A stretch of 64,000 nucleotides of DNA, from NCBI GenBank assembly GCA_008632985.1, contig QPGO01000152.1:1-64000 (forward strand), read 5' to 3'. Under the pieces are notes generated by a model that saw only the letters and a program-made list of their open reading frames with translations, was not told the origin of the DNA and did not search any database. Made by a program: the position numbers and the translations under genes. Source of the stretch: Psammoneis japonica (Eukaryota). Shown one piece after another: positions 1-22,807 of this stretch; positions within the stretch are counted from its first letter, which is position 1; every line of letters starts with the position of its first letter.

Positions 1-1097
1 GCTCTTGAAAAGAGTCAGTCACCAACAACGGCAACAATGACATCCCTGCCTTGCAGGGAAAGTGTCTTGACAAAGACTCAGATGATGAAGATGACAAAAG
101 GAAGAAAACAATCAGCACACGCAAGGCTTCATTCGGTCGCTCCGACATGACACAGCGGGCCAGTCCGTCGAATCCAAGGTGGCTCATGTTGGTCCCACCA
201 GCCTGATGTGATCAAGCACAGCATTGCACACCAAGCCACTTCACAAGTCCAGCCCAACCAGCAACTGCTCCTTGCCACCGCTTGGTGTTTTGACCATGGA
301 CAATGTGAATTTCTCCACAATCCAGAGATCAAATGTGGAGACATTGTTGACACTGTCAATGTTCGTTGCATGATTCTGTTTAAAGAATGACTCCAATGTG
401 CAATTGGGGAGGCAAGTGCAGTGTGCATTTTCACATGCACATTCACAATTGTGAGTCATGAGTGTTGTGCACGTCATTTGCACCACAGTCGTGGGTGGAC
501 ACAAAGGACAGATCGATCACACACACAGAGTTGACAGGATGTCAAGAGTTGCAAATGCAGTTGATCAATGACACTGACAGACAGATGTCAATGCAAATCA
601 AGTGTGGGACAATCTGTTGTCATGATCAGATTCTCCAAGAGGCCTTCAGTTTGCAGAAGCAGTGCCAAGGCTTCAGGCCATTGAGGACCCCTTCAGAGAA
701 TCCCAAAACAGCAGAGTGAAATCTAATCTCATGATTTCTGCTTTTTGTGATTTGTTTCCACTTTCATGCACACTTGTTCTTTGAGCACAGCGCGTGCTGG
801 CATTTGAAGCATCAAGTCATTTGGGTGGCTCTGGCACTTGTGGTGGTTGGAGCCTTTGCACTGCCACAGGCGGTGATGGCTGGAGTCTTGCACCAAACAA
901 CAGCCAAAGCAGCCAGCATCAAGTTGAGGGCAACACTTGCACTTCAAAGCACTTGAAACTTTGAGCTCAGAGGCTGTTTTGTTCAGGGTCATCCAAAGTG
1001 CCATCAGCCTGCAGCACATTGTCAACCCTGTTGAAAGAGTTGTCCGGCTTGCAAAGCTTGATCACAATGTGAGATTTTTCCTTTCACTCATTGGCAC

Positions 1098-1371
1098 TGA
1101 CAGGATTTGAACAGGATTTGGTGCGCGCGAAGCATCGCGCGCTGTTTAGTTTACCGTGCACAGTTTTGTGTGCTTTAGTTCCGCGCGTTCACGCGCGATG
1201 TAGTTTGCTTTCGAGCCACAAGGCTCACAAGAACAACAACAGTAGCCCGATTGTGCCGACTTACACGTCTTCGGCTCCTGCAACGGTCTCTGAGCGGAGA
1301 CTCATCTGCCATTTAGACAGCAGTAAGGAGTCATTGTTTGAATTCTTGCCATTTGCCTTCATTTTCTGTCA
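1098..1371 (+). repeat. 5' LTR of element 1 (274 bp)
   Basis: TGACAGGATTTG...TTCTGTCA, nearly identical to 7922-8197. Confidence 0.93.
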
Positions 1372-1382
1372 GATTAACAGTC
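1372..1382 (+). promoter_or_regulatory. Putative primer-binding site complementary to a tRNA-Asn(GUU) anticodon arm (half-tRNA priming)
   Basis: GATTAACAGTC directly follows the LTR. Its reverse complement GACTGTTAATC matches tRNA-Asn positions ~30-40 as I recall them. Confidence 0.55.
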
Positions 1383-2308
1383 TTGCTCATTGTCAACCCA
1401 TTGAGCAACCGCCATCGTCGTCGTTGATTTACCAACGACGCTATTTCAATTCTACGTGGACCTCCGTGTGTGTTCTACATACATCGGCAAGTCTACGCGC
1501 ATNNNNNNNNNNNNNNNNNNNNNNNNNNNNNNNNNNNNNNNNNNNNNNNNNNNNNNNNNNNNNNNNNNNNNNNNNNNNNNNNNNNNNNNNNNNNNNNNNN
1601 NNNNNNNNNNNNNNNNNNNNNNNNNNNNNNNNNNNNNNNNNNNNNNNNNNNNNNNNNNNNNNNNNNNNNNNNNNNNNNNNNNNNNNNNNNNNNNNNNNNN
1701 NNNNNNNNNNNNNNNNNNNNNNNNNNNNNNNNNNNNNNNNNNNNNNNNNNNNNNNNNNNNNNNNNNNNNNNNNNNNNNNNNNNNNNNNNNNNNNNNNNNN
1801 NNNNNNNNNNNNNNNNNNNNNNNNNNNNNNNNNNNNNNNNNNNNNNNNNNNNNNNNNNNNNNNNNNNNNNNNNNNNNNNNNNNNNNNNNNNNNNNNNNNN
1901 NNNNNNNNNNNNNNNNNNNNNNNNNNNNNNNNNNNNNNNNNNNNNNNNNNNNNNNNNNNNNNNNNNNNNNNNNNNNNNNNNNNNNNNNNNNNNNNNNNNN
2001 NNNNNNNNNNNNNNNNNNNNNNNNNNNNNNNNNNNNNNNNNNNNNNNNNNNNNNNNNNNNNNNNNNNNNNNNNNNNNNNNNNNNNNNNNNNNNNNNNNNN
2101 NNNNNNNNNNNNNNNNNNNNTGCGGACCGGACAGGAAGTTTAGCACTTGACAACGAACGGGATGACAAACCCTGGCGACTTCTGATCTTAAGATAGTTCA
2201 AGATTTCAAGTCAAGTCCATTTCAAGTCAAGTCTGTTCTCACCCAAGTTTCGAGTCTGCCTTCGCTTCCCAACCAGAATTGATTGTCCTGACACCACTTT
2301 TGTCTGCC

Positions 2309-5300
2309 ATGGTTCTCACTCGTCAGCAACAAACCGATGGTTTCGAGCACGTGGTTGGAACCGTGCTTGCCCAAGGTGCTGGGAGTCCTCTTCGTTTGGC
2401 TTTGGCCCAAGACGGCACGGACTCGCATCAGGAACTGTTCACGTTCATGCCGTCCCAAATCGACTCGCTTGAGTGCGACAACGGCGCCAATGCAATCCCT
2501 TTGCCCCGTGGTCATAAGAACACCGTTAGCAGCACTGGTCAGTCTGTGCATTGTCAAAGCACACAAAGGTCTTGACGTTGCCAACGACTCCTCTTTGTTC
2601 ACGCATGACGAGTTCCTTGCCCACCGCCTCAGCCCCGACTGCATGTCTTCTGTGTCCATCGGCAGCTCACCCCTTGCACCTCCACATGTCACCAACCCGA
2701 CCAAGGCACGCGACCCGGTGCGGGACTTCAAGCGAGGCATCAAGCGTGATCCCACCGCTTTTACGGCTCTCAAATCCGACAAGCAGTGGCACACTTGGCA
2801 CACCTCACTTGTGGCACAAGCCCGTGCCCAAGACGTCGAGTGCATCTAGACTCGTCGTACAAACCGACCAGCCCCGAAGACAAACTGCTCTTTGCTGAAC
2901 AGCAAAAGTGCATGTTCGCCGTCTTCGAACGCATCCTTCTCACCGACAAGGGCAAGGCTCTCATTCGCGAAAATGTGGGGTCTTCTGACGCACAGACCGT
3001 CTGCCGCTCCTTGTCTGAGTGCGCGCTTGCCTCCACCCGCGCATCTGTCGAGTCCTCCACCCTGCTCACATGCCTCACCACCGCGCGTCTTGGTGATGGC
3101 ACTTGGAAAGGTCCGACCCACGGGTTCATCCTTCATTGGCAAGATCAGTTGCGCAAGTGCGAGGCACTCATCCCGGCCAGTGACCACTTCTCTGAAGGAC
3201 AGAAGCGCGTCATGCTCGAGAATGCCGTGCACCCTGTCGAGGAACTCCGTGCTGTCAAGAACCAAGCTGATCAGCATCTACGCAGAGCGGCAAGAGCCTC
3301 ACATGCGATCAATGCTGTGGCTTGCTCCTCTCCGCGCAGCTCAGCGCGACAGCACGTTTCAACCCAAGACGACACCTCGAGCTCCCCAACGTGCCACATG
3401 CACACACGACGTCTGCTCCGAGGAACCGTCCGACGATGTGTTCTACGACATTGACAGTGACGTTGATGTCCTTCAAGCCAATGCTGCCTGCACCGCGGTC
3501 CCAGCCTCACCGGTGTCCAATGGAGACGTCTCCCTCCCGACCACCAACGGCTTTGGGATTCGTTGCCCGATTCCTCCAGGGCGATCATCCTTGAGCATTC
3601 TCGTCCACCTCCCCGCAACCCGCGAGCCAGCAACTGCCATGAGTCTGTTACGGCCAACCTTCACGACCAACGCCTTGGGAGTGACGGTGATGTCAACTTG
3701 TCCAACACGACTCCCGCTGACTCTGGTGACTCCGCTCCACATGTGGACGCCACTTCGGATAATCCCATCCTGGCGCACCTCACCAAGCGCAAGCCACTGC
3801 CACCCGGTGATCTGCAACGTCTGTTGTCTCCCAACCAAGCTCCCAATGCCAGTCGACCGGGGCCATCCGCCGCTTCCTCTACCCCGCCAGCTTCTGCAGA
3901 TGACACAGAACTTAACGGCCGCACTTGCCACCGCGCCAACAACCACAATGTCATTTACTCTGCCTCTGCTCATCGCTCCACACGCACTGGCGCTCTAGTC
4001 GATCGTGGGGCCAACGGCGGCATTGCTGGCGACGACGTTCGCGTCATTGCACGCACCTCTCGCCAAGTCGACGTTCAGGGCATTGACGATCATCAATTGG
4101 TGGACATCCCCATTGTCACCGCTGGTGCCGTCATTGAGACCCAGCGTGGTCCCGTCATCGCCATCCTCCATCAGTGCGCATGCACGGGAAAGGGCAAGAC
4201 CATCCATTCCTGCGGCCAGCTCGAATGGTACAAACAGGATGTCAACGATCGCTCTGTCAAGGTGCCCAACGGCTTGCAACGCATTGCCACTCCTGATGGC
4301 TATGTCATCCCCATTGACATCAAGGCTGGCCTGCCTTGTGTTGCCATGCGACCTTACACTGACGCCGAATGGGACACCCTGCCCCATGTCATCCTCACCG
4401 GTGATGACACATGGGACCCTTCCGTCCTCGATCACTCTGTCACTGACGACGACCAGTGGTGCGACGCGATCTCTGACCTGCAGGACGATCCCACTGCCAA
4501 CCTGTTTGACGAATGCGGCAACTGCCGTCATCGTGTCGTTGTCAACGAGACCATCATGTCCGCTTCCTTGTCTGCCGATCACGCGTCCGCCCTCGATGAT
4601 CACCTCATTCCGAACGACGACGTGTTCTACGAGTGTCATCTGCATGCGATTGACCCCAAGGGCGATGACGTTCCACCTCCGGAGCGCACTGTACAGCCCA
4701 AGGACCCCCCCTTCGAGTCTCTTCGGCCTTGCTTTGGCTTCCTACCTGCCGATGCGGTCCGTCGTACTTTTGACTGCACCACGCAGTGCGCCCGCATGCC
4801 CGCCGGCACACACCTTCGCAAGGCCTGCAAATCACCCAACCCCGCCCTTAATGTGCACCGCCGCAACGAGCCTGTCGCCACTGACACCGTTTGTGCCGAC
4901 ACCCCGGCCGTCGACTCTGGTTGCACCAGCGCCCAACTGTTTGTTGGCACCGAGTCTGCCGTCACTGACGTCTGCGGCACTGAGACGGACAAAGAGTTTG
5001 TCAACACACTCGAGGATCAGATCCGTGAACGTGGTGCCCCATCCAAACTCATTGCGACCGTGCTCAAGTTGAGATCAGCAACAAAGTGCTCGGGATCCTG
5101 CGCGCCCTCTTCATCTCCAGCTGGCAAAGTGAGCCTCACCAGCAACACCAAAACTTTGCCGAGCATCGACACCAGACCGTGAAGCGCATGGCGAACACTG
5201 TCATGGACCGTTTTGGTTCGCCCGCCCACACATGGCTGCTGGCGCTCATGTGCGTGTGCTTCACACTCAACCATGCAGCGTCCCCACGTCTCCACTGGCG

Positions 5301-8109
5301 CACGCCCCTCGAGACTCTCACTGGATCCACCCCGGACATCAGCCCATTGCTTCGCTTTCACTGGTGGGAACCAGTGTGCTTCCACCTCGATGACTCCGAT
5401 TGGCCGTCCGAATCCCGTGAGTTGCGTGGACGCTTCGTTGGCATTGCTGAGCACGTCGGCCACCAGATGACCTTCAAGATTCTATCTGACGAGACTCAGA
5501 AGATCCTCTGCCGGTCCAACGTTCGCTCCGCTACCCCCGATCCTGCCGTTCGAAACCTGCGTCTTGATCCTCCTGATGGGGAGCCACCTGAACCCATCAT
5601 CAAATCTCGCCATGACGACAACCCCGTCGATTCTCCTGATGGGGAGATCAGGACACCCAAGATGCCAGTTTTCGATCCGCAAGACATCATTGGACGTACC
5701 TTCCTCATGCAGCCACAAGAGGACGGACAACGCCACAGAGCTCGCATCGTCAAGGCCGTCGAAGACCACGAATGGAAAGTGAACGGCAATCCCGAGCTCA
5801 CTAAGTTCGTCTGCTCTGTCAACAATGACGAATACGAGGAAGTCCTTGCCTGCAATGACATCATGAATCACATTGAGCAAGAAGACGAAGACACCACCAT
5901 TTGGAAATTTCGACGCATCGTGTCACACGAAGGACCTCTGAAGCCTCACGACCCAACCTGGAAAGGCTCAAGCTACAACATCATGCTTGAATGGGAAAGT
6001 GGGGAGATCACGTCCGAGCCTCTTGCCATCATCGCCAAGGACGACCCCGTCACCTGTGCCATCTATGCACGAGAGAACGGACTCCTCGACACGGATGGCT
6101 GGAAGCGGTTCCGCACCATCGCGAGGCGCCAAAAGAAGCTATTTCGCATGGCCAACCAAGCCAAGCTTCGCTCCTTCCGCACTGCACCTCGCCACAAGTG
6201 CGGATGCGAAGTTCCCCGGAACTACAAACACGCCATGTCACTGGACGAACGCAATGGCAACCGCAAGTGGGGAGACGCAACTAATCTCGAGATGGACCAA
6301 CTCGACGAATACGAAGTCTTCCATGACTGCGGGCCCTTCAAGTCTTCCACTCCTCCTGCGGGACACAAGAAGATCCGAGTGCACCTGGTGCACGACGTGA
6401 AACACGATGGTCACCACAAGGCAGGACTCGTAGCCGACGGGCACCTCACGGACGTGCCCATCGACAGTGTCTACTCCGGAGTAGTCTCCCTCCGTGGCCT
6501 TCGGCTGATGATTTTCCTGGCCAAACTCAACGAGCTGGAGACATGGGCCACCGACATTGGCAATGCCTGCCTTGAAGCCACCACCAAGGAGAAGCTTTAC
6601 ATTGTGGCTGGACCCGAATTTGGCAAACTCGAAGGACACATCCTTGTCATCCACAAGGCACTGTATGGACTCCACAGCTCCGGTCTCCGCTGGCACGAGC
6701 GCTTCGCCGACTGCCTGCGAGCTGAAGGCTTCTTCCCCTGCCACGCCGAACCCGATGTTTGGATGCGCAGGATCGGCGACCACTGTGAACACATTGCCGT
6801 TTATGTGGATGACCTCGCCATTGCCATGAAGGACCCTCAATCTTTCGTCGACACTCTCACGGAAAAGTGCAAGTTCAAGCTCAAGGGTGCGGGACCCATT
6901 GAGTTCCATCTGGGTTGCGACTTTTCCCGGGACCCCGACGGAACCTTGTGCCTGTCTCCGCGCAAGTGCATCAAGCGCATGGTCGACAGCTGCGCCCAAC
7001 TGTTTGGGGAGAAACCTGCCACCAACGCCCTGTCACCTCTAGAGAAGGGTGACCACCCCGAACTGGACACTTCCGAACTGCTGGGACCCGATGGCATTCA
7101 CAAGTTCCAGTCTCTTGTTGGTTCACTCCAATGGGCAGTGTCCCTTGGTCAAATTGACATTGCCACGGCCGTCATGTCACTCTCTAGCTTCCGAGCTACG
7201 CCCCGTCAAGGCCACTTGGATCGTGCCAAATGCGTCTGTGGGCACCTCTCCAAGATGCGACACGGTGCTCTCCGCGTTCGCACGGAAGAGCCCGACTGTT
7301 CGGATCTCCCTGCTCCGGCCTGTGAATGGATGCATTCCGTGTGTGGTGAAGCAGAAGAGATGATCCCGAAGGACGCTCCACCGCCCCTTGGCAAGTTCGT
7401 CACTGCCACCCACTGCGTCGATGCAAACTTGCACCATTGCATGCTCACCGGACGCTCTGTCATGGGAATGCTCCACTTCCTCAACAAATTCCCGGCTGAT
7501 TGGTTCTCCAAGAAACAAGCCACCGTGGAGACTGCAACCTGCGGATCTGAATTTGTTGCCGCAAGGAATTGTGTTGAGCAGATTGTCGACCTGCGCATCA
7601 CCCTGCGCTGCCTTGGCGTCCCGATCCGCAATGTCAGTTGCATGTTCGGTGACAACAAGTCGGTTGTAGACAGTGCCACCATCCCGCACTCCAAGCCACA
7701 CAAGCGACACACCGCACTGTCGTTCCACCGTGTGCGTGAGGCAATTGCCTCTGGTCACCTTGAGCTCCACTTCATCGAAGGCTCCCGCAACCCTGCTGAC
7801 ATTCTCAGCAAGCATTGGGGTTGCTCCCAAATCTGGGACCTTCTCCGCCCCCTCATGTTCTGGAACTTCATTCCATCCGAAGTCGAATCTGTTTCTGTGG
7901 CTCCTCAAGCAAACTGGGGAGTGACAGGATTTGAACAGGATTTGGATGCGCGCGAAGCATCGCGCGCTGTTTGGTTTGCCGCGCACAGTTTTGTGTGCTT
8001 TAGTTCCGCGCGTTCACGCGCGATGCAGTTTGCTTTCGAGCCACAAGGCTCACAAGAACAACAACAGTGGCCCGATTGTACCGACTTGCACGTCTTTCGG
8101 CTCCTGTGA
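2309..8109 (+). pseudogene. Frameshifted gag-pol polyprotein of element 1
   Basis: Fragments in ORFs 2279-2575, 2337-2849, 2786-3454, 3563-5182 and 5086-8109. Motifs include DRGANGG, TDIGNA(C)LEA, ALYGL, YVDD, (C)GSEF, DNKS, HRVRE and NPAD. Confidence 0.9.
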
Positions 8110-8197
8110 CGGTCTCTGAGCGGAGACTCATCTGCCATTTAGACAGCAGCAAGGAGTCATTGTTTGAATTCTTGCCATTTGCCTTCATTTTCTGACA
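7922..8197 (+). repeat. 3' LTR of element 1 (276 bp)
   Basis: Preceded by a purine tract; aligns to 1098-1371 with ~10 substituted sites and 2 single-base indels. Confidence 0.93.
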
Positions 8198-8202
8198 ATC
8201 TC

Positions 8203-8507
8203 AATCACTTTTCGGTTCAGAGACTGGCTCTGAACCTCTCACAACATCCAAAACACTCTTTTGTGCATGGCATGACCTTCTCTGCTGTGGTTTGCTCCAG
8301 CTGGCCTTGACGTTCGGCACAGGACTTGACCACCCTTCTTGTGCCAGGGTTTTCCAGATTTCAAATCACTCCTCGGTTCAGAGACTGGCTCTGAACCTCT
8401 CACAACATCTGAGACACTCTTTTGTGCATGGCACTGACCTTCTCCAGTTTGTTCTAGCTGGCCTTGACGTTCGGCACAGGACTTGATCGCCCTTCTTGTG
8501 CCAGGGT
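8203..8507. repeat. Tandem repeat, ~161-bp unit, ~1.9 copies, interrupted by element 2
   Basis: AATCAC..CGGTTCAGAGACTGGCTCTGAACCTCTCACAACATC...GTGCCAGGGT starts at 8203 and again at 8364. The unit end resumes (AGGGTTTCCCAG) at 15435. Confidence 0.85.
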
Positions 8508-8676
8508 TTATGGACCAGCGGCATCGGGACAATCTAACGGATGTCTAGGACAGATGACAATCGTGTGCTAGATGAGAAAGAAAGTGAGCAAAGGAGAGAT
8601 CATCGGATCTCTCCATGCTGTCTGTGCTAGTCTGTCCGACACAAGGGAGTGTGATCCCCATCTCGGATGTCTGTCA
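8508..8676 (-). repeat. 3' LTR of element 2
   Basis: Ungapped match to 15266-15434. Confidence 0.92.
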
Positions 8677-11600
8677 CCCTCCCCTGATGAGCAATGCAAT
8701 GCTCAACAAGAAAGAAAGAGACGATCCGAATAAAAAGAGAGGACCAGAGTGGCAAAGAACAAAACAACCCACGGCCTTGGTCAGTGCATCAGCAGGGTTA
8801 ATGACACCCGGGATGTGTCGAGTGACAATCTTGCCCGCGTCACGCCAGCCTTGGACAGCAAAATGTTGAACATCAACATGACGAGATCGCTCCGCAGGCA
8901 CCTTGTTGTTGATCATCTGGGTGGCAGAGGAGTTGTCAATGTGCAAGGGAGTGGGATCACATTGGGGAAAACCCAATTCTTCCAGAACCATGCGGAGGTG
9001 CAGGGTCTGTTTTGCAGCAGTCACAGCCGCGAGGAACTCAGCTTCCGTGGAACTGGCAGCGGCAATCGTTTGCGTGCGGCATCGACAGTCAATCGCAGCA
9101 CCAGCAAGGACATGCGCACAGCCAGCAGCAGAACGGCGACGCCACAGTTCATTGCCATGTGCCGCATCAATGAATCCAAGAAGTTGGAAAAGGTCAACAG
9201 CACGAGGAAAATCCGGGAGAGATGGGTCATCCTCAAGCCATTCAAAATCGCAAGGAGGTGGGCCGGGATCGCGTTTAGACTTCTCACGGGTCAGTCCCCA
9301 ATGTTTGGTGTGCCGCAAATGCTTGGCCATGCGCTTGAGTGAATCACAATGGAGCTCAGCCGGTGCCTTGGAAAACTTGGACAAGGTGACAACAGGACAC
9401 CCAATGTCCAAACGACAACAGGAGCAGGCAAAGACCAATTCACCCAAGACAGAACAGTGCGAGAATCCTTGGGACTCAGCAAGAGTGTCATGCTCGGGTG
9501 CACCCTCTTCAGGACCTTCAGCAGTGTGCAGATCAGGAATGCAATCAACCGGAACAGGGGCGGCCTTGAAATCAGAATCAGACTCATGTGCATCGGGAGC
9601 ATCCCAACCATGGGTCTTGAAAACACGGTCAAGGCAGCTGGCAATGTTGACAGTGATTGAGTCGTCATTTTGAATGACATCAATGCCATTGAAAAAGCAA
9701 CCAAGCCCAAACACTTGAAGGGAGGAGTGTCCTCATTCTCGATCTGGAGAGCCCCACCAACATGGTCGCAGATCTCTTTCGCAATCTTTTCAGATGGACA
9801 AGCAAGAGCAAAATCATTGACCTGACAAAGGAGGAGGACCTTGACACCATCATGTTCACCGGAATGGATGCACTTGTCATGAGCAATGTTACGGAAAAGA
9901 AGTTTCTCACCCGTGAGAATCGAATTGACGTGCTTCTCCCAGAGGACACCAGCTTCAGGATGGCCTTGAAGAGCATGCTTGAGTGGGAGAACATGATGGC
10001 GGGGTGCTTTCTTGCCAAATCGCTTTTCATGCCAGGCAGCACATGCATCATCAACAGCAACAAAAACCGGTTGGGATGGGCCAGGAGAATGAGCGCAGGC
10101 ATCCCGTGCATCGCCGCCGAAGACACGATGCGACACAGCCGCACTGAGAGCGAAAAACATCTTTTCGACAGAACGTTCCACTCATGACGAATGGGTGGAA
10201 GTCAACTTGTGCAAGGCCGGCATTGCCAACTTGGAACCATCACCACATTGTTGGGAGCGACGTTGGCCATCCGGCTTTGCCATGCAATCCCAATGCGGAC
10301 GCATGACATTCGCGCCAGGGGACGTGGTTGCGGAGGACCACACATGCCCAGGGCACAAAATTGGTCCAGTTGATGCTGCTCGCCTTCTTCCCATTCAGGC
10401 CATGTGTCAAGTTTACGAAGCTTGGCACGGGTGAGACGGTCAAGAGCAGCTTCCTCCTGAGTGAGTGAGCGAGAGCCAATCGCATTGAGATGTGCATAAA
10501 ATGCATCCGCAGGAATGGCCTCATCCGAAAAATCATCATCGGGACAGAGAAGAGCCACAACAGATCGCACATCCTCCAAAGCAAGTTCAGGAACATGAGA
10601 GTCGTCCTCCACAGTGTCCGGCTCAAATGACTCCGCTTCCTCAAATGCCTTGTTAAGAGTGCGAGAATCCAATCGTCGTTCCGGCGCAAAAGCAATCTCG
10701 AAAGTTGGAATTTTGTCATGAAAGACCTGAGACAAGGCCTCTTCAGCATCGGAAGGAGTAAAGACTTCACGCTTGTTGACAGAGACAACATGTGCACCCA
10801 CAATCTTGTTGCAAGCAGCACGGAGGGAAGAAAACAATGAAGCCGCAGGACTGCACTGCTTGATTTCCGACACACAGACACGGTCCATTGGCGCACACTG
10901 AGAAAATCCAAAACCATGAGTGGGGTCCTTTGGAGGACGTTTCATGGTGCATGTGATGGTCGCAGCAAATGGATTCGACGAAGACGCAAACATGGGAATG
11001 GTGGTGTCCTGTGTTTCAGCTGGAAAAGGCTGACCATTTTCCACACGCTGTAAATGGACAGCATTGGGAGGGAGTTGATCCAAAAATGGGTCACCCACAC
11101 CTTCATCACAGCGCACATGCTTGGCCATCTTGACTTCATCAGTCTCAGGATCCCACCACATGACATTCTTGAGGGTGTTGGGAAGGCAACCAAGGAAGAC
11201 ACCCTTCTTGGAATTGGTCTGGAAGGCAGCAGAACGAGCAGTGGCGTTTGAACCATGCTTGACATCCGAAAGTCTTCAGAGCAGTAAAATCTTCGACCTT
11301 TCCGGCAGCAAGAGTGATGGGTGCCGCATCTTGATCTTTTGCAGGAGCGGCATTCTTGACACGGAGGTGGTGGTAAAATGCATGGGGCCAGAATCGGATC
11401 GGAAGGTTGGCACCAATTAAAATCGCACGAATCGCGTTCTCAACAGTTGGGTGTGAGCGTTCAACAGGCCCACATTGGTTGGATGCGCCAGCACCAGAAG
11501 GACAGATGTCATGCTGGAATTCTCGTTCAAAGAGGTCACGAACTTTGGGGTTTTTGCACAATTCCCCACCTTGGTCCACAAACACACATTTGTCACGACA

Positions 11601-14600
11601 ATTCCGTGAATGTCGATCCAAGAATCGGTGAAGCCACTTGAGAGGACTGGCCTTTGAAACCCTTGCTACGCCATGGAGCATCCGCGTGTGATGATCATAG
11701 ACAGCAATCCAACATGTTTCACCATTGTGTCCAAGACAATCAACCTTGCGGGCTTCATTCTTGGAAGTCTGGCCAGCAAAAGCAAAATCGACAGTGAGAC
11801 CTTGGTGTGGTTGGGTCGCCTTCCGAGTCGTGTTTGGTCCAGCAGGAGTCTTGACTTGCTTGGCTTGGACACACGCAGGGCATGTGTCAAGGACAGGATT
11901 AGCATGACAGAACTTGGGGACGCCCTTGACACACTTGTGAGCATTGTGCAAGCAGTGATCACTGGGGTGTCCAAGGCGTTGATGCCACAGAAGACGTTCA
12001 GTCTCAACCTTGAGAGAGCGGACAGGAGCAGGGGCAGACAACGGAGCTGAGTCACACTGCATCGAAAATGGCTCAGCATCCATCAGCAAGGGATCAGATG
12101 GACCTTGTTGGACGTTGACAAAAAAGACTGCACGTTGACATGCATCATCAACGTCATCAACCAAGGACAAGTCAGGGGTCGTCGATGTCGAGGGGACACC
12201 AGACGGAGACGGAGGAACCAGGGGTTGTGTGAATGCCTTGCCATGTCGAAGCACACCATGGACAACTGCCGCTTGTGCATCAGTGGAAGCAGTGCAAGTG
12301 CAAGTGCCATTGGCACATGTCTTCTCAAGGAGCTCGGAGCGAGTGGACTGAGATTTGAAACCAGAAGCCCACGCAAAATCACCTTCATCAATCAAAGTGG
12401 ATCGTAGACTGGGATGGTAAAAAGCACGTACGAGAAGAAAGCCTTCAGGGTTGTCTGCAGGCACCTGTGGGCATCCAAAGCCATGAGGAACCGCATCAGA
12501 GCCTTCAGCAGCCGGAAGCATCTTCAAAGGGCATGGGTCATCCGGTCCAAAAGGAGCACATGCGTGGAGGAGGTTCTTGTCCCCTGTGCAGGACACCCAA
12601 GCACCAGCATCAATCTGTGCACGATGTGTTGTTGAATCACGAAGCACATGATTGATGGGAACAACTGGGGCAGCAAAGGATGCAAAGGTCGCAGGTGACT
12701 CCGGGGGAGAAAAAATCGGGGAGATGCGTGCGGCACTGAGAGGCGACAAATGCTGGGTGTCAGTCACATCAAGATGCTCAAATGCTTGGTCTTGATCAGT
12801 GGACAATGGAGCATCAGCATCCAATGTAGGAGGATCGAATTCCCTCCCCTGATTGTGATTGCCAGGGTCATCATCAGGAATCGTCTTGGGATCAGGAGCA
12901 CCAGCCTTCATCGAGCTCGAAAGAAGGGTGGCAAATGAGACAGGTGAAAGAGGAGGATCAGCAGAAGGCAACGAGTCGTTTGGACCCTCTTTCACAGTCA
13001 CCCCGCTTGCAGGAGTTTTCGGATTGGAGGAGAATGGGCAGCATTGTTTGTCCGAACACAACAATGGCCCCAGGAAAAATCCTTCTTGGCCGTGCCAGAC
13101 TGAAGTGCATCACGAGCACGCTGGTCACGTTGAAGAAACTGGGAGAACCGAATGAGATGGGTGCGCAGGTGCTCAGCATTGTTCAACACAGGACACTCAT
13201 GGAACAAGTGGTTGTTGCCACAAACAACACATGGACGGTTCTGTGCAATGGCAGGCGAGGACTTGATCCCACAGATGCAGGCCTTGTAGACACCATGGAG
13301 GGCTTGTGCATCATCATCTGCAGGAACATCCACAGTGGCAAGTTCATTTACAAAATGTTCCACAGTTTCCGTGGGTTCTTCCACAGGAGGAGAGTCAGAT
13401 TCCTTGGGAGACTCTTCAATCGCTGGAGGCGGAGTAGAAACTTCATCCTGGGGAAGCAATTCAAGACCGCGGACAGGAGCTGCGAGAGGAGGAGGAGGCG
13501 AAGTGTGAAGACAATGTGGAGGACATTTGGGAGGGTCCTTGACACGTAGAGCTGGGCCATCCGGTTCCTTGAGAATCGCACCAACGGTTTCAACAATCTT
13601 CTTCTGGGTGAACTTGTGTTGTTTGGTCTTGTCTTCCCGGGCGTCCGCTGTTTTACGGTGAAGGTGCTCGCCATGGCGGGTGTTGCTGAGAAAAATGTCA
13701 AGCTCACCAGGGTCATCAAGAGATGCATCAACATTGGAGATGACAGCTCGCAGCTGAAGGCAGTCTCTGAACAGAGCATGACAGCAGGTGGCTCTCAATC
13801 AACTCATGCGGACGCTTCGTCCAAATTGGTGGGATGTCAAAGAGAATCATCTTGACAGCTGCGTGTCCATCACCACAACATTGGCGAACGATGTCAGGGC
13901 ACTTGGAGTCTGCCGGAAAAATTCCAACTTTCTGAATGTGCTGGAAGATGGTCAGTTTCATTCGGTCAAGTGCTGCCATCATCCGGAGAGGCAGATCATC
14001 GGTGGGATCATTGCCACAAGTGAAACCCCAATTTCCACCATCCTTGATGAAACACCACAGAGGATGCACACATGTGCCACAAGCCGAGGCTTGTTGGGTT
14101 GCAGCAATGCACCATGCACGGATTCCTTGAGGAGAGATGTCATCACAAGTGAGAGGATCACGAAGGAATGATTTTGTGTCCCAGTCAGTGTGATGAACAA
14201 AGAGTGAACCATCAGCAAGGATGAGACGCTCAGTGCCATCCTCGCAACAAAGGTTTCCAGACTTGCAGGGTGCCAGGGATTCGCCAAGTGCTGCTTTCCC
14301 AGCTTCCTTGCGCTGACAGCGGGCCAGTGCATCCTTTGGAAGTCCTTTCGGATTAAAGGTGTGTGTGGCACTGGCAGCAGTCGATGAAGAAGCCATGCCA
14401 GCAGCAGTCATGGCAGACGGTGCAGGAGACGACACCTTGGGAGTGGAGTTCTTCAGTGCGTTTGTCACAGCTTGCTCAAACTGTTTTGGACCAGGCAAGT
14501 GAGCAGCTGGGGCCTTGGCAAAGTCTTCAGGAGTGGGACCTGCAGTGGCAACTGGTGTAGATGCAGAACTCAAAGTGGTCGGTGGATCCGGGTGCGGATC

Positions 14601-14771
14601 ATCAGAGATGTCATCCCAGCAATCACAACATCGAAAACGAGGGCTGAAACAGAAACGTAGAGTCCCAACACACAGATGTGTGGCATCGTCGTTCTCTGAA
14701 ATCACCTTGATCACAGTCTTCTGAAGAGTGCTGAGGTTCAGACGAACCGGGGGGCCTTGAGGAGCAGCCAC
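8674..14771 (-). pseudogene. Frameshifted gag-pol of element 2
   Basis: Fragments in ORFs 13728-14771, 12998-13798, 11145-13064, 10202-11161, 9291-10181 and 8674-9714 carry copia motifs in the expected order. Confidence 0.9.
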
Positions 14772-15255
14772 AAAGAGAGGAGCCTTCTCAATGATCGGTC
14801 CAATTTGTGCAAGATCCTCAGTCTGGAGAGCTTCAGGGATGATGAGATTCTGAACGATCTCATGTCAGAGGATGGCAACAGCGTCGCTCTTGAGGCCTTG
14901 AGGGGCAAATCCATCCAAAAGATCTTCAGGAGCAGGGATCTCGTCCAAATGAAGAGCATTCAGGAAAATGTGAGCATCGGGTGTGCGATTGTGTGGGCTG
15001 AATTCAACCCGCATTGTCTTGATCTTGGTCAAATTGACGGCGTTTGGATTTTTTGTTCACCATGGTTGCGCGGGAAAAAAATTAAATTCCTGTGCAGAGC
15101 TCTGGTGTGTGTTCTACGGTGGTCGTTTGATCACAAATCGAGAGGTGAAAAAATGGCTGTGACAATGATGACGATTTCAACAAAGAAAAAGTCGCCAAAT
15201 CACACAACAGGCACTGCAATGGATGAGCACAGAGGAAGAGGAACAGTGCACTGCT

Positions 15256-15265
15256 GCTCACAACC
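15256..15265 (-). promoter_or_regulatory. Putative PBS for tRNA-Met half-molecule priming (GGTTATGAGC, mutated to GGTTGTGAGC)
   Basis: Abuts the 5' LTR. Plus-strand GCTCACAACC equals the Met anticodon loop GCTCATAACC with one TA->CA change. Confidence 0.65.
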
Positions 15266-15434
15266 TCACGGACTAGCGGCATCGGGACAATCTAATGGAT
15301 GTCTAGGACAGATGACAATCGTGCACTGGATGAGAAAGAAAGTGAGCAAAGGAGAGATCATCGGATCTCTCCATGCTGTCCATGATAGTCTGTCCGACAC
15401 AAGGGAGTGCACTCCCCATCTCGGATGTCTGTCA
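15266..15434 (-). repeat. 5' LTR of element 2
   Basis: Begins TGACAGACATCC on minus; matches 8508-8676. Confidence 0.92.
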
Positions 15435-16842
15435 AGGGTTTCCCAGCTGCGAAATTCTGCGCAAAACAAACAGTCTGCAAAACAAGGAAGAGTGAGCAAG
15501 CTGAGCTGGTGAACAGCTGTTTGCAATCATGGATTGATTGCCCACCTTTTGCAAATGTTTGCAAACTTCAGCGAGCATCGCCGGCCATGAGGCGAAATTT
15601 CAGAGAACGGCACGCTGGAAAACTGATTTTTGCACACAAAAACTGGCTTCCAACTTTTGCACACAACTCACTGCAACAGCATCTCTCTGCTCTTCACCAG
15701 CTGCTGCCAGCAGCAGCTGGCAGTGGCAGCCAGCCAGAGAGCAGTCTCCACTGCAGCAGAGCAAGTCACTGTCTTCCGGGTCCGGCTTGTCAAAAGGTGC
15801 GGCAAGCTCAGTGGCAGAGCTCAGCCAATCACAGGACGAGGTCGGGGGTTCGAGTTCCTCCCTTTTTCCGCACTCACGTGCTTAAAAACAAGGCTGAAGC
15901 AACGCGTCATCGCGTGCACGCGAGCTGTTTCTAACAGCCCACAGGAACAGCTCGTGTTTCGTGTTTGCAAACAGGTTTGCAGTCGAAGACAGTTGCCAAA
16001 CAAATCCTGGTTCTGACAAACGCTTGTTGCAAATCGCAAACAAGCAGTCTGGTGAACAGCTGTCTGCCAGTTTGTGAACTCCATTCGCGGTTAGAAAATG
16101 CTGCTTCTTGCCTTTCATGGAGACCCGCTTCAGTTTCTTCTTCTGTCAACGATGTCGTCTGGGCGGGTCACTTTTGAACAGAATCAAACAGCAAGTGTGC
16201 AGTCATTGGTTTTGTGCAGGAATCATGCAGAATGTGCAAGCAAAACGATCATTGTGACTTTTCTTCATGCAGAAGCCACGTGAAATCACAGTGCATTGTT
16301 TCACTGGTGCATGAACAATGACCAAAAAACCAGTCATGCGACACACTTGCCGCATCATGAGAGTCAGCAAGTGATTGACATGGCGACCGGAGCTGTGGCT
16401 GATTCCGGAATCAGAACACGGTGCAAGCCGTGGTGATTCCAGATGTCACCACGGTTGAAGTTTGCTGGCATAAAAAATGTGCAGGAACTGCATTGGGCAA
16501 CGGGATGTCACAACAGAAATGCCACCATTCCTGTGCATCTTTGTGGATGGATGCATGCACTGCATCAACCAGCTCCCCTTTTCTCCATTCACAGCAACAA
16601 CTGTTGTGACGCACCGACAGAACAACAACACAGCTCACTTTTTGGATCGAGGCGTTTTTTGCCATCTGGCGAGTTAAAATGCTGGCAACACTAAAATGCT
16701 GACAATGCCAACACACTGGCAACACTGTCATGTTGTCCTTCCCCATTTTGTCTAAAAGAACATTGTCCCACATCATTCCACAACCACTGCAGCTCCTCTT
16801 CTCATCCCCAAAGTCTTGAACTCACTCCCCCAAAAAATGAAC

Positions 16843-19262
16843 TCACCCCAAGAGTTGTGTTTCTTGGAGCTTAGATTGAGCAAGCTTGTCTTTGAGGGTT
16901 TGACGCTTCATGCCCGCTTGTGCCATGGTGTCCTTGAGATGGCAGATCTCTTGATCTTGGTTGCTGATGGTTTGCTCTTGGTTTTGAGTTGTTCCTTGCA
17001 CAGTCTCAAGCTTCAACTCCAAAGTTGCATGATTTGACCACAGCTGCACTGTCTCTTTCTGGGCATCACAACACTTCTGGCCCATTTTCTCAAGAGAGCT
17101 CTTCACTTTCTAAATGGAGTCATTGCAGTGATCAGTGCAATCCTCCAAAGAAATGATTGAATCTTTCGTGTGCATGCTGTTGACCCGTTCCTGGAGCTCA
17201 GCATTTTCCTTTTCCCCACCAAAGATGTTGATTCGGAAAGGTCATTGTTTTTCAACTTCAGCACAGCATTGGCAGATTCTGTGTCAGCAACTTGAGATTC
17301 CAGTGTCTGAACAGCAGACTCTGGCTCTGTTTTCTCTGTGTGCAAACTCGCCAATTCCAAGGACAGCACCAAATGACCCCTCAATGATGCAGCCTTGTTG
17401 GACTCTGTGAGGTTGCCACAGATGATGCTGGAACAGCAGCTCCATCTGCAAAGGTGGCTGCAGCTGACACACCCTGAACCAACACATTGTAGACCAATGC
17501 ATTCTGAGCCAACACACTCTGAACCACCGACGTGTTCTGAACCAATGCGTTCTGAACCAATGAGTCCCCAACCGATGCTTTCTGAACTGACACATTCTGA
17601 ACCGACGTGTTCTGAACTGACGCACCCTGAACCGACATGCCCTGATTCCCAGCCAGCATGTTCTGCACTTGATGGTCAAGCAAATTGCTTTGATGAACAC
17701 ATGGCAACTGGCTCTCTGACGAGTTGTGCCTCACATGAGTTTGCATCTCTTTCAGATGCAAGTCAGCAGATGCCAACAAAGTGATCATCAGTGCATGGTT
17801 GCTGTGGCTGGTGACTTGAACCCAGTTGTCGAAACTGCACAGCTGAGCAACGCACTTCATTTTGTCAGAAATGACATTGATGCCAGTGACACCCGCAGTC
17901 TTTCCAGGCCTTGCACGACAGGCTAGACCATCTAGTTTGCACTGTTGCTTTTGCTTGTCCATCGCCTCTCAGTGCAAAAATCTCTCTTGATCCAGAGGAC
18001 ACCAAGTCCGATGCGCAGCAATGAGCTTGAGCGGACACATGGGGTTCATGGGCATTTCACAAACATGCATTCTGTCAAGGAGCTGCTTTTGGAGCACGGG
18101 ACTCTTGATCCTTGGTTTGTTGACTTTGTCCTCATCAAGTTGCACCCTGACATGCAACTTCCCAATGTCCGGTCCAGATTCATGCTTGCCCATTGTCACA
18201 CTGTCCCATGTGAGACAGGCAATCTCCTTGTTGCCACGCAAACCAAAACAGCACCCTGGCACAAAAACCAATGCAGGTGTCATGTCTTCACAGTCTTCCA
18301 TGGGTCAAAACTTGCCTTGACAGATTTTTGCTGCTGTCTTCTGATCTGCCCTGATGTCGACGTGTGACTTGTTCTTGCCAATGCCAAATGGCCTGTCCTC
18401 CTGTTGCTGCTTCTTCCATTCATCTTCCAAAATGGAGCACCAGCCGCCTTTCTGTTTGAATTCCTTGTCTTCATGCTTGCACTGAATGCTGTGTCTTGCA
18501 AAGGTTTGAAAAAGTTGCTTCACGCACTGAGTGAACGTGGATGGCTCATGCATTTCACCAGTCTTTGTGCATTGCGCCAGCGATGGACAACAAGAACAAG
18601 ACAGAAATTCAAAATCTCATGATTGTGCTGCGTTTTCTCTCCCGCAAGTGTCTTGCAGAAAACCCGCACAGTCTCAATGGACTCTTCTGACTTGATTTCT
18701 TTAAGAAGATGCTGCAGCCTCTCACCGCCTGATTCTTCCATTGTCACAAAAAAGCGCACCTCCAACTTGTCTCTTGCATTTAAATGCCAAGCTGAAATGC
18801 CAGAAGCCTTCTTGGTGTTTTGCATTTCTTGCAAAGTGAGATCTGAGCTAGAACACATCCTGCAGTGAAGGCTTTTGGCCAGTTCTCTTGACACATTTGC
18901 TCGTCATTGCACTCCAAAGCAGGTGCAGCAGCAGGTGCTGCAGCTGTTGTTGGCGCCGCTGCATGTGCCACTCTGGTGCATTGGCGTTGGTGTTTGAAAA
19001 TGACCCGTCATTCCCATGATGTTCATCATGGCATCCACCAGCATTGTCATTGCAGCCAAAGCAGTCAGCTTGAGGTGGAGCAACAGCATTGGATGTTGAT
19101 GCATTGTGCAAGCCCACAAGAGATTTGACTGCCATTGCCGTGTTTTGCATCAGTGGCTGGCAGGGTGTCTTGTTTGTCTTCTTCTTCTTCTTCTTCTTCT
19201 TCAGACAAGCTGCTTGACAATTGATCAGGCAGATGAAAGCTGCTGTCTTCTTCAAAATTCAT
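16843..19262 (-). pseudogene. Heavily decayed coding remnant(s): coiled-coil, pentapeptide-repeat and acidic segments; identity unknown
   Basis: Protein-like fragments in successive minus frames (LELASLHTEKTE...LESQVADTES; VQNxS repeats; EEEEEEE) inside TpA-depleted DNA. Confidence 0.35.
17470..17640 (-). repeat. ~15-bp minisatellite (TCTGAACCRAYRYRY-like) encoding VQNxS pentapeptides on minus
   Basis: About 10 degenerate TGAAC-containing units; translation SVQGASVQNTSVQNVSVQKAS... Confidence 0.8.
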
Positions 19263-21136
19263 CTTTCACAAGCAGCACTGTCAAATCTGTTGTGGAGCAA
19301 AATCAAGAATCAAAACGCTCAGTGTGAGAGCAAGAAATGTGCGAAGAACCAATTTTTCAAAAATGAATGTCGGACCGTTGCGAGTGCCAGTCATTGGCGT
19401 GCAAAAAAAAAAGCCCACAGTCAACAATCAACAACAGCAACGACACTTGTGCTTGACAAATTCCCTCAACAAAAACCATTCCTGCACTGTTGCTGTTTGA
19501 CTCCTCATGCAATCTGTGCTCACCACCAAACAGAATCATCTCTCCCACACTCGCACACTCACCTCGGGTCGTTTGATTTCTCATCTTGTGTCAACTGCAT
19601 CTCCACTTGCCTTGAAATCGAACTCCCCTTGGTTCATGTTGGACTCGGTGCTTGTTCTGATTCCTCACGGAATCACATGAAATCACGCACTTGCGCTGGC
19701 ATGCTCGTGACATGATTTCCGTGTGACTCCGTTGATTTTGCCGCAGCTGTCATGTGATTGCTGCTCAACAAAAGTGCAGCAAAGTCGAGCAAGTCAAACT
19801 GCAATGGCAACCAATTTTGCCGTGCTTGACATGGTTCAGAAAGGTGTCGCTCACATCTGGCAGCATGACACTGGCTGCCACCTCAACGAAGGTGGAACTC
19901 TTTTTTGTCAAGCCGCCGATGGTTTCCAAGTTGTTGATGACTTCATTGGTCTCAACATCTGCAACTTTGCTGACAATGGTTTTCAGGTGGTTGCACAACC
20001 TTTTTGGACATGTGTCATTGTGTCCAAACCACCATCAACACAATTCCTGTGGGCAAAGTTGCTGATCCTGCAAATGGTGCTCTCAAGCTGCTGGCGCCAC
20101 TGCTTGAGCTCCAATCACTGTCCAAGCAAAGGCACCTAAATCCAAGAAGGAAAAGAACCTCAAGAAGAGGACCGCTGATGCACAAGCTTGTTTCTCATTG
20201 ATGTTCTGCCACAAGACAGTTGGATCTGATGATGCTGTCACCCTCAGCCAGCACAAGCAAGTCTTCATCAAGGCTTTTCAAGAGTCAAGCAATGCAGAAT
20301 GTGCTTGTTTCATCAACAAGATTGTTGCCATGAGCTGGTGCATTCTTGCGGCTTGCATTGCTCAGATGTTGTTTGTTTCATGGAGGTGGAAACACAAGAT
20401 TCAATGTGAAGGCTTGCTGAAGAGCAGAGTGCATGCCTTTTCTGTGATCTTCCAATCTTCCAGAACAAGAAGCTCCTTTGCTCTTGTTGACAATGGCTTT
20501 CAAACTGCAGAACCTCCTCCTTGTGCCCCAGCACCAACAGCATTCACAAGCACCACGCAGCTGCAACAGAGCCAATCCAAGCTGTGAGAGTCGCACAACA
20601 ACCAACCCAACGACCGAACGGGTGCAACAAGTGCAAAAAGGAAGACATTTGGCACAAACACAAGGCATGAGTTCCAGTCAATTTTGACTTAATGGTGGTG
20701 TGCAATGAACAATTGTGGCATCTGCCTTGCCTTGGTTGCCAACATGAGATGGACTCATTGCTCAACGATGATTGAGACTGCGTTGCAATTGAACTGTTGG
20801 TTGACGCGCTACTGGGGATCGTTCCATTCACCATTTTGTTTTGGTGGCATCCCATCCATTCGGCGGGGCTTTGTTCATGCTCTGCTGCTCAGGCGTCTAT
20901 GCCGAACGTTTCATCCTCACCCCACACGTCAGGCCGTAGGTAAGGTACGGCAGGTAGACTCCCTTGCAGGGTTCGTCGGTTCTGCTACAAAATTTTGAAG
21001 TCGCAAGTTAAACCGCCCATCTAGTCATTTTTAATTTTGCTTTCGCGATGATGTGGGCGGTCACCAGAATAATCGCTAATAATGTTGACATCAATCTCCC
21101 ACAGCCCCGACGGGGGATTTGGTTTCGGAAAGAAAT

Positions 21137-22084
21137 TCAAATCCTTTTCTTGACCTCGTTTTTCTTGATTTCTGCTTCCGCAATGCCGCTCATCTCAAAC
21201 AAATAGACCATGAATTGATTCAACTTACGAGCATACCACGGAATGTTGTGGGTTCTCAATACGTCGCAATAGAACAATACACGCACTTCGTCCGTGGTGT
21301 TGTAGACGGCGTGGGGGAAAGTGTCGTCCCATAGAACTGACTTGCCCTCCTCCCAATGGTACTTGATTCCGTTCACTTTTAACCAAAGGTTTTTTCTGTC
21401 TTTTGGCACGATGACGGGGACCATGAATCTCATCAGTCCCTTATAGTATCCAACGTGCATCGGGATTTTGCATTTCGGCTCGAGGATGGAAAGGACGCAG
21501 GCAATAACGTCGGGACACTTCTCCAACAGTGCACACAGAGTGGGAAATTCTTCGCTTGCCCCTTTCATGTGGACATTCGCTACCTTGATGGACAAGATGC
21601 GCCACTGGTTTTCTCCACAACCGCCACTGCCAATGTATTCGTTCTCTCCGCCGTAGCTATCCTTGGTTGCGGCTACATCCTTCCCACCGTTGGTCCGGGC
21701 CAAGTACGCTCGTACTTCCTTTTGAAGCTTTGCAAATGTCGCGGGATCTTCGAAAAGTGCATGTTGTGGGAATTGAGTTTTCAAGTCGAGAAATTCAGGA
21801 GTCCGGAGGAATAAGGCAAAGAAAAGAGACGCCATGTAAAGAACACGAATTGGCTCCCACCAGATGCAAACAACGAGCACAATCAACAGAAGTGCCGCCA
21901 ATAACAAGTCTCGGCGACAAAGGCACGCAAGAAAAAGCAATAACACTACATCGAGGAAAAGCCCAATACGGTCCTTGTGATTGAATGAAAAGTTGTTGCC
22001 TTTCTTTCGGAACTGAAACTCCTCCCGAGTGAGTTCAGCCATGGCGGGCGAGGAGTTGTCGCCCAACGACTTTCCCACGATCAT
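21137..22084 (-). CDS. Aspartyl/asparaginyl beta-hydroxylase-family 2OG-Fe(II) dioxygenase (AspH/LpxO-like) with N-terminal membrane anchor
   Basis: SILEP..IPMHVG..GLMR, W.EGK.VLWDDTFPHAVYN.TDE.RVL..D motifs; hydrophobic N-terminus; start codon uncertain. Confidence 0.85.
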   Translation of the reverse strand: MIVGKSLGDNSSPAMAELTREEFQFRKKGNNFSFNHKDRIGLFLDVVLLLFLACLCRRDLLLAALLLIVLVVCIWWEPIRVLYMASLFFALFLRTPEFLDLKTQFPQHALFEDPATFAKLQKEVRAYLARTNGGKDVAATKDSYGGENEYIGSGGCGENQWRILSIKVANVHMKGASEEFPTLCALLEKCPDVIACVLSILEPKCKIPMHVGYYKGLMRFMVPVIVPKDRKNLWLKVNGIKYHWEEGKSVLWDDTFPHAVYNTTDEVRVLFYCDVLRTHNIPWYARKLNQFMVYLFEMSGIAEAEIKKNEVKKRI

Positions 22085-22807
22085 CGTCGCGCGACTTCTT
22101 GTTCTTTTCTCTTTGGCCTCGACACGTATAGTGGATAACCTTCTACAAGAACAATTTGGTGATCCTTCTCTGTAGTTGATATTCAATATAGGAGCACGAG
22201 TTCACTCTCTGGACCCCAGCGCTGTTAGAATGAAGAGAGAATAGTACGGTCGCTATCGCGTGCCCGATGCCCGAATGCGAAGGGTGATTTGTGATTTAGA
22301 TTTTAGATTGTTGCTTCGGGCCGAAATTCGAAATGCCGAGCTTCGTGCACGTACCGGTACGTAGAGACCGTACCGGCAGGGGAAATTTATCAGCATTCTA
22401 CGTACAGTGCTGTAGAATGTCCGATTTGTATGTGTAGATTACGTGGCACAGTGCCACAGAGGTCATTGACTCCAAGCATCTCGACATTGCTGTCCAGCAT
22501 GTCAACATCTTCAATCACAATGTCAAGGGTCTCAATGTGCATCTCCATGCCGTCAAGGACCACAATGCTCTTTTTGAACGTGTTGTGGCAGCCCCTGACC
22601 CCGACAACCCTCAAAGTGTTGACGAATTTTTCGACCCCAATCACAATGCCTGGGACCATGCGACCCGCAACATGATGACCGAAACAGTTGAAAATGTCAC
22701 TGCTTTGGAGAAGCACATCAATGCCATGGTCACTGGTTGCAAGAAACCTTCTGAAGGTTGCTGTTCTGTGCCAAGCAAACCCTCTGAGGGTCGAAGAAGC
22801 AACGGCT

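Follow-up and report, generated by a model that had tools for sequence, protein, structure and literature searches.

The window analysed here comprises 64,000 nucleotides of the diatom Psammoneis japonica (assembly GCA_008632985.1, contig QPGO01000152.1, positions 1 to 64,000, forward strand) and contains, at 8508-15434 on the minus strand, a dead Ty1/copia long terminal repeat (LTR) retrotransposon of 6,927 bp. The element itself is an ordinary dead copia insertion, and its interest resides in the mutation spectrum displayed by its two LTRs and by the body between them. We consider it moderately probable that this spectrum, taken as a whole, reflects a TpA-specific mutator together with CpG decay acting after insertion, with the TG/CA swaps between the LTRs representing double hits at TpA. 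The element and its borders comprise the following features:

8503-8507, no strand: left copy of the target-site duplication, AGGGT, from direct reading; AGGGT is also found at 8346-8350, in the paralogous empty site.
8508-8676, minus strand: 3' LTR, the left LTR of the window (L), 169 bp, with five TA and seven CG and reading TG at all three swaps.
8677-8685, minus strand: polypurine tract AGGGGAGGG (coding strand), abutting the 3' LTR on its upstream side; the letters are read directly and the function is assigned from position.
8758-12995, minus strand: dead pol, with protease, integrase, reverse transcriptase and RNase H, from tblastn and Pfam.
13193-13231, minus strand: zinc-knuckle-like CX2CX3HX4C motif in the translation, probably the end of gag, an assignment made without a Pfam match.
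15236-15265, minus strand: leader starting GGTTGTGAGCAGC (coding strand), just inside the 5' LTR and, by position only, at the place expected for the primer-binding site.
15266-15434, minus strand: 5' LTR, the right LTR of the window (R), 169 bp, with four TA and seven CG and reading CA at all three swaps.
15435-15439, no strand: right copy of the target-site duplication, AGGGT, from direct reading.

Read in the coding sense, the element begins with R (5' LTR) and ends with L (3' LTR), and its long reading frames lie on the minus strand. The pol region follows a diatom copia polyprotein of 1429 aa colinearly through 1380 residues (tblastn) and is broken into four frame segments (11247-12995, 10319-11236, 9702-10307 and 8758-9720), which implies at least three frameshifts. 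The gene order characteristic of copia, with the integrase upstream of the reverse transcriptase, is found through this colinearity; the reference polyprotein carries PF13976, PF07727 and PF25597, and the open reading frames (ORFs) of the element match gag_pre-integrs and SH3_retrovirus in Pfam. A Pfam search of the ORFs of the window, at E values up to 0.1, did not detect RVT_2 in this element. The nearest proteins derive from Fistulifera, Cylindrotheca and Nitzschia records, with identities of at most 59%, and the protein searches returned no protein copy of the same family, the best identity being that same 59%. The LTR begins with TGACAG and ends in ...CCATAA or ...CCGTGA, not in CA.

Target-site duplications of Ty1/copia elements are short, typically 5 bp. 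The insertion sits in the second unit of a tandem duplication of ~160-bp units (8203-8507), and its flanks, joined with a single AGGGT, give a 77-nt alignment across the junction to the paralogous unit at 8290-8366. The alignment through this empty site and the matching AGGGT together verify both the insertion and the duplication, so that the AGGGT duplication reported in the initial annotation stands. As a caveat, the TT that follows the left AGGGT is also present in the right flank and the duplication is therefore readable up to 7 bp, in which case offset 1 would not count as an LTR difference. The two tandem units also differ from each other, by a CA/TG swap (8249-8250 versus 8410-8411, CCAAAAC versus CTGAGAC, with an A/G difference 2 nt away) and additionally at one CCAG/CTAG site; such differences thus occur outside retroelement DNA too.

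The structural comparison of L (8508-8676) and R (15266-15434) reveals a gapless alignment over 169 bp with 156 of 169 bases shared; they are the sole copies of the LTR in the window, where blastn found no third one. The 13 differing bases, at offsets 1, 3, 8, 30, 58, 59, 62, 115, 116, 119, 144, 145 and 146, comprise (i) three TA-versus-CA/TG sites (offset 1, TA/CA; offset 8, CCAG/CTAG; offset 62, CTAG/CTGG), (ii) three TG/CA swaps, always with TG in L and CA in R, (iii) two CG/TG sites (offsets 3 and 30), and (iv) two transversions (offset 119, C/A; offset 146, A/C), and the re-alignment of all 13 reproduces exactly the list given in the initial annotation. The swaps, each with its closest further difference, are:

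Swap 1: TG at 8566-8567 in L, CA at 15324-15325 in R; a TA/TG difference lies 3 nt off, at 8570.
Swap 2: TG at 8623-8624 in L, CA at 15381-15382 in R; a C>A change private to R lies 3 nt off, at 15385.
Swap 3: TG at 8652-8653 in L, CA at 15410-15411 in R; a C>A change private to L occupies the adjacent base, 8654.

At 15403-15416, R reads GGGAGTGCACTCCC, a perfect 14-nt palindrome centred on swap 3, where L reads GGGAGTGTGATCCC.

All the transitions between the LTRs (11/11) fall in TA, CG, TG or CA steps, and none is found at the 42 other G:C sites or the ~75 non-TpA A:T sites of each LTR, leaving the two transversions as the only ordinary-looking substitutions. The transition spectrum is thus confined to the four pyrimidine-purine steps. 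The LTRs belong to a single verified insertion, which bears out the claim that their differences postdate LTR synthesis, and the pair is good evidence for dinucleotide-targeted transitions accumulating in resident DNA.

The direction of change in the body was polarised with 30 homologous polyproteins, restricted to the 655 columns in which at least 70% of these agree. Tyr is the conserved residue in 29 columns, which now comprise one Tyr, 14 Cys, 11 His and three Phe. At the first codon position, A>G changes (I>V, T>A, M>V) are preceded by T in 25 of 28 cases, as against only 2 of the 69 retained A-start codons (Fisher 1e-17 between the two sets), and altogether 50 of the 53 testable TpA of the body (~0.94) have been lost. 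The observed/expected ratio of TA is 0.08 in the body and 0.02-0.19 over positions 1-20000 of the window, compared with 0.39-0.67 in the gene-bearing part, 24001-64000; TG and CA are enriched in the element (1.44 and 1.65, respectively), and the flanks outside it are as TA-poor as the body. The strand symmetry that the initial annotation had singled out for examination is present, both strands being hit (14 Tyr>Cys versus 11 Tyr>His, P=0.69) with the Cys and His outcomes interleaved along the element (12 runs versus 13.3 expected). A nearly saturating, strictly TpA-specific A:T>G:C process operating on both strands is demonstrated for the body.

The loss of TpA also shapes the reading frames. 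Stops on the coding strand, summed over three frames, comprise 188 TGA, 12 TAA and nine TAG, and since nearly all are TGA both strands are rich in long open frames, with 41 of at least 80 aa across the two strands of the element; in TpA-erased domains a gene cannot be recognised from the length of an ORF. The TpA-poor domain ends at ~20.9 kb: the TA count per 170-bp bin, zero to three before this point, rises to 11 in the bin that begins at 20911. Beyond this boundary lies a minus-strand gene (21137-22201) with an Asp/Asn beta-hydroxylase domain (Pfam E=1.7e-28).

CpG decay is superimposed on this process. CG methylation of diatom transposons, by DNMT5a, is established (PMC9998398, PMC2806351). 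In the body, 27 arginines encoded by CGN are kept and 6 of 33 have changed to Cys, Gln or Trp; the observed/expected ratio of CG is 0.60-0.69 in the element (0.60 in the body) and 0.79-1.11 in genes, and the combination typical of methyl-CpG decay, a CpG deficit with a gain of TG and CA in the repeat, is thus apparent at the level of sequence. CpG decay is present but far weaker than the loss of TpA (6/33 versus 50/53).

A second Ty1/copia element, here termed element A, lies at 1098-8197 on the plus strand, displays an RVT_2 domain and adjoins the target repeat. Compared with the reference protein it shows 24% identity over 504 residues, and no target-site duplication is visible around it, its 5-bp flanks (GGCAC and ATCTC) being mismatched. 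Its LTRs (1098-1371 and 7922-8197) differ at seven TA-versus-TG/CA sites, with TA in the left LTR at six of them, as well as by one CA/TG swap (1281-1282), one CG/TG site (of ~20 CpG), a single transversion and two indels of one base each; TA occurs eight times in the left LTR and three times in the right. Seven TA differences set against a single CG difference indicate that TA erasure of integrated LTRs outruns CpG decay here.

The comparison with the wider family relies on public contigs of one DNA run aligned to the element at a likeness of at least 80%, which yields 3554 contig pieces; among 1832 variable places the 40 listed have shares of 0.888 or higher, and we infer that the list is ranked by share. 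Both transversions are private to this copy, with C in 6157 of 6221 of the family depth at 8654, where L has undergone C>A, and with 7326 of 7326 disagreeing with the C>A of R at 15385. None of the swap bases of either LTR is among the 40 listed places, and, on the assumption that the list is ranked by share, TG and CA both seem widespread in the family, which would be expected of a dinucleotide that mutates repeatedly and not of a private event. Five private CG>TG/CA changes of this copy are found among the 40, and at 8628/15386 both LTRs read TA where 90-93% of the family contig depth is CA.

Other places of the body also depart from the family. At 10917-10918 and 14177-14178 this copy reads TG and 91-96% of the family contig depth reads CA, so that one copy alone can carry a swap with respect to its family. 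Differences from at least 89% of the family depth further occur at 11094-11095, 11450-11451, 8849, 9929, 12343, 13863 and 14510; nine of the changes at this level, with tandem TT>CC and AA>GG among them, are A>G or T>C in steps other than TpA and are not explained by a strict TpA process. The summed contig depth is ~12,000 over the LTR bin (8544-8787) and ~1,400-2,800 over the body (8788-14887), and the family is abundant, probably with many solo LTRs. A 22-base word of the LTR has no match in viral contigs; a metagenome contig sharing the word is a chance match, aligning over only 54 nt at 83%, and three Clostridia contigs with it were judged chance matches by description only.

The account that we favour for these observations is that of an old, dead, minus-strand Ty1/copia element whose insertion would have duplicated 5 bp of a short tandem repeat within a 20-kb TpA-depleted repeat domain, its LTRs then diverging almost only by two dinucleotide-targeted transition processes on chromosomal DNA. 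These would comprise (i) a TpA-specific A:T>G:C mutator of the kind described in Bigelowiella natans, turning TA into TG or CA according to the strand of the changed adenine, and (ii) the decay of methylated CpG, turning CG into TG or CA. The three swaps would most likely mark TpA hotspots, each struck a single time per LTR, on one strand in L and on the other in R, and adenine deamination may be the chemistry of the TpA process.

The ancestry of the swap sites was evaluated with a Poisson rate model, with priors for the ancestral TA and CG densities taken from the genic part of the window. The probability that a swap derives from TA is 0.53-0.86 across the settings, of which flat priors give 0.68 and a CpG loss tied to that of the body 0.83; a CG origin of all three has a probability of 0.02-0.11. 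If the swaps are read as TA, the sites fall into four classes, namely three intact in both LTRs, one in L only, two in R only and three hit in both, which fit independent hits with rates per LTR of ~0.44 and ~0.56 as calculated by hand, or 0.44 and 0.54 in the model; LTR CpG loss is then 2/16, matching the 6/33 of the body, and it would be 8/22 if they are read as CG. Overall, we assign the ancestry of the swaps a weight of ~0.6 to TA, ~0.25 to CG and ~0.15 to other routes. The LTR pair thereby provides moderate evidence for the swaps as double TpA hits, the ancestral dinucleotide being deduced from this weighing.

Several observations weigh against this account. Under a low TA prior the probability of a TA origin falls to the 0.53 of the range given above; per site, a CG decaying to TG in one copy and to CA in the other costs no more changes, and the CpG methylation of diatom transposons is itself established (PMC9998398, PMC2806351). 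A further difference lies no more than 3 nt from every swap (permutation P=0.010), and this clustering, in two cases with a private C>A change, hints at linked local events and not at clean independent hits. In addition, some of the TA in the LTRs may have been newly made by C>T and not be ancestral, given that two of the three single TA sites are CTAG versus CCAG or CTGG and that the TA at 8628/15386 is mostly CA in the family. The most serious misfit concerns the TA retained in the LTRs, nine in 338 bp, compared with 29 in the 6589 bp of the body (P=6.5e-5), a density six to seven times that of body and flanks; three TA survive in both LTRs, which erasure of the strength seen in the body (50/53), acting after insertion, could not have left.

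This retention of TA implies either that the process is patchy or spares the LTRs, or that much of the erasure of the body predates the insertion, in which case erased, dead copies were still mobilised, with selection keeping the LTRs. The wider message of the initial annotation, that mutation followed integration, consequently carries for the differences between the LTRs and fails to carry for the body, whose near-complete erasure is unmatched in them. A refractory sequence context of the surviving TA was considered and rejected, because the survivors lie in CTAA and CTAG, yet the body contains no CTAA and no CTAG. Across positions 1-20000, the 169-bp windows with at least four TA start at 1034-1453, 8379-8535, 15219-15274, 3829-3880, 4598-4692 and 6431; the first of these ranges corresponds to the left LTR and leader of element A, 8379-8535 and 15219-15274 to the LTRs studied here, and the rest lie inside element A.

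Four other histories of the LTR differences have to be compared with a TpA origin. The swap sites may have been methylated CpG, converted to TG by deamination in L and to CA by deamination on the other strand in R, a possibility that we regard as rather unlikely and under which the swap sites would tell nothing about the TA process. It requires the same number of steps as the TA route and draws on the two certain CG/TG differences in the LTRs, the CG deficit of the element (0.60-0.69, against ~1.0 in genes), the five listed places, of 40, at which this copy has a private CG>TG/CA change and the methylation described in PMC9998398 and PMC2806351; nevertheless, it sorts the sites into six intact, one plus one single and three double, a both-or-none excess (chi-square ~4.1, 1 df, or ~7 if hidden same-direction doubles are added, both by hand), demands an LTR CpG loss of 8/22 where the body shows 6/33 over its whole history, receives the low model probability quoted above (0.02-0.11) when applied to all three swaps, and sits poorly with the LTR pair of element A, which differs at one of ~20 CpG but at seven TA sites. 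Change in one LTR only, by two steps (CA to TA or CG, then to TG) or by a single complex event, with the other LTR keeping the ancestral TG or CA, would require that 338 bp underwent three events of two or three bases each but few single ones, and is improbable in our judgement. It would account for the further difference within 3 nt of every swap (P=0.010) and for the adjoining changes at 8654 and 15385, confined to L and R, respectively, and the body places 10917-10918 and 14177-14178, TG here against CA in 91-96% of the family depth, lend it a precedent; these private bases, however, are listed (99% of the family disagreeing at 8654 and 100% at 15385) and the swap bases are not among the 40, an argument that assumes ranking by share. 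The perfect palindrome around swap 3 in R may be the original state, as a change in L only would have it, but by our own estimate it is more likely to have arisen by chance from an imperfect one plus TA>CA.

The remaining two histories place the differences before integration or in other copies. Towards the end of reverse transcription the two future LTRs pass through a short single-stranded phase, the 5' LTR with its plus strand exposed and the 3' LTR with its minus strand. An adenine deaminase that works on single strands could at that stage have marked the two LTRs on opposite strands, and the identity of LTRs at integration, on which the initial annotation had relied to dismiss editing before insertion, is not airtight as an argument by itself. 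The orientation expected of such editing, A>G on the plus strand in L and T>C in R, is found at 3/3 swaps and 1/3 single sites, and the position dependence of cDNA editing, with gradients 5' of polypurine tracts (PMC7760323), could explain why the LTRs are less mutated. The four fits in six trials are not significant (~P=0.34, by hand), and the dismissal is sustained on other grounds, namely the two-strand pattern of the body and the second LTR pair: changes confined to one strand, as editing at the cDNA stage would leave them, are not what the body displays, where the two strands are hit about equally and in interleaved order (14 versus 11; 12 runs versus 13.3), and the right LTR of element A breaks the rule with five A>G against two T>C. 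Flanks that were never reverse-transcribed are equally TA-poor, and in growing lines of B. natans the mutations strike chromosomal DNA (bioRxiv 10.64898/2026.01.13.699255). Editing before integration is for these reasons very unlikely. We hold as least probable that the LTRs descend from two elements by recombination, or were altered by patchy gene conversion, with their differences being family variants; the family is abundant, and its depth (~12,000 in the LTR bin against ~2,000 in the body) suggests that solo-LTR donors exist, but recombination between two elements would have broken the arrangement in which either end is bordered by AGGGT and the flanks, once joined, match the empty site across the junction, and the two transversions, with which 99-100% of the family depth disagrees, were not copied from a family member.

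A TpA-directed A:T>G:C mutator has so far been documented only in a single preprint, for one unrelated alga (bioRxiv 10.64898/2026.01.13.699255), and a full-text literature search for hypermutation of diatom transposons, at TpA or from A to G, returned no paper. If the TpA origin holds for diatom retrotransposons, the process would be widespread among secondary-plastid algae, would act on resident DNA and would coexist with the decay of methylated CpG. In such genomes the divergence of LTRs is unusable for dating insertions, 11 of the 13 differences being targeted and two ordinary. The most useful new lead comes from comparing the two parts of the element: erased bodies beside TA-rich LTRs provide a concrete handle on how the mutator is aimed. 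We tentatively suggest, as a possibility rather than an expectation, that this diatom has a chromosomal TpA-specific adenine mutator directed against retrotransposons, powerful enough to strike one hot TpA separately in each LTR of a single insertion and on opposing strands, and uneven in its action, erasing the bodies almost completely and leaving the LTRs and the 5' leader as TpA islands. Two options would fit this unevenness: targeting by a signal of the element body (transcript, small RNA or chromatin mark), or mobilisation of erased, dead elements in trans, with only copies that have intact LTRs jumping.

Among known systems, the repeat-induced point mutation (RIP) found in ascomycete fungi enriches TA by converting CpA to TpA. 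The process seen here resembles RIP in that dinucleotide-specific transitions inactivate repeats and spare the neighbouring genes, whereas TA is removed, TG and CA are enriched and Tyr codons are lost to Cys and His, so that both the direction and the attacked base are opposite; RIP is ruled out by TA at 0.08 of expectation and by Tyr codons that are lost, not gained. Methyl-CpG decay likewise generates TG and CA from a palindromic dinucleotide on either strand and certainly acts here, but it cannot account for Tyr>Cys/His, for the T-dependent A>G at the first codon position or for a TA ratio of 0.08. With the editing of minus-strand retroviral cDNA by APOBEC3 (PMC7760323) the element shares a deaminase-type hypermutation of retroelements, of position-dependent intensity and weaker in the LTRs; unlike APOBEC3, which acts on cytosine, on one strand and before integration, the changes are at A and T, on both strands, and affect flanks that were never reverse-transcribed. 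Compared to the CoDi-type Ty1/copia elements of diatoms (Maumus et al. 2009, PMC2806351), the element displays the same short LTRs and short target duplication, but it is dead and at most 59% identical to any protein found.

At the level of sequence the pattern agrees with the process in the chlorarachniophyte B. natans, for which a 2026 preprint (Mettrop et al., bioRxiv 10.64898/2026.01.13.699255) provides the particulars that follow. In mutation-accumulation lines, integrated giant-virus and virophage DNA mutates ~1000-fold faster, the changes being almost only A>G/T>C and always at TpA, and the authors propose an ADAT-like adenine deaminase; the words 'CpG' and 'diatom' are absent from that text, which mentions RIP as a comparison. 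Both systems share TpA-restricted A:T>G:C changes on either strand, which affect only foreign or repeated DNA, and TpA-poor, CpA- and TpG-rich domains beside normal genes. They differ in several respects, including (i) the host, here a stramenopile diatom; (ii) the targets, LTR retrotransposons and adjoining repeats here and giant-virus and virophage inserts in B. natans; (iii) the evidence, historical here (an LTR pair and Tyr codons) and consisting of new mutations in lines there; (iv) the extent of erasure, far more complete here, with a TA observed/expected ratio of 0.02-0.19 against 0.45 in the viral region of B. natans; and (v) CpG decay, overlaid here, unlike in the B. natans account. 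As to change during residence in the chromosome, the flanks outside the element are erased too and its LTRs far less than its body, and the LTR pairs may have changed in place, differing at TA versus TG/CA at three sites plus three swaps in the element studied and at seven plus one in element A, if the direction deduced for them is right.

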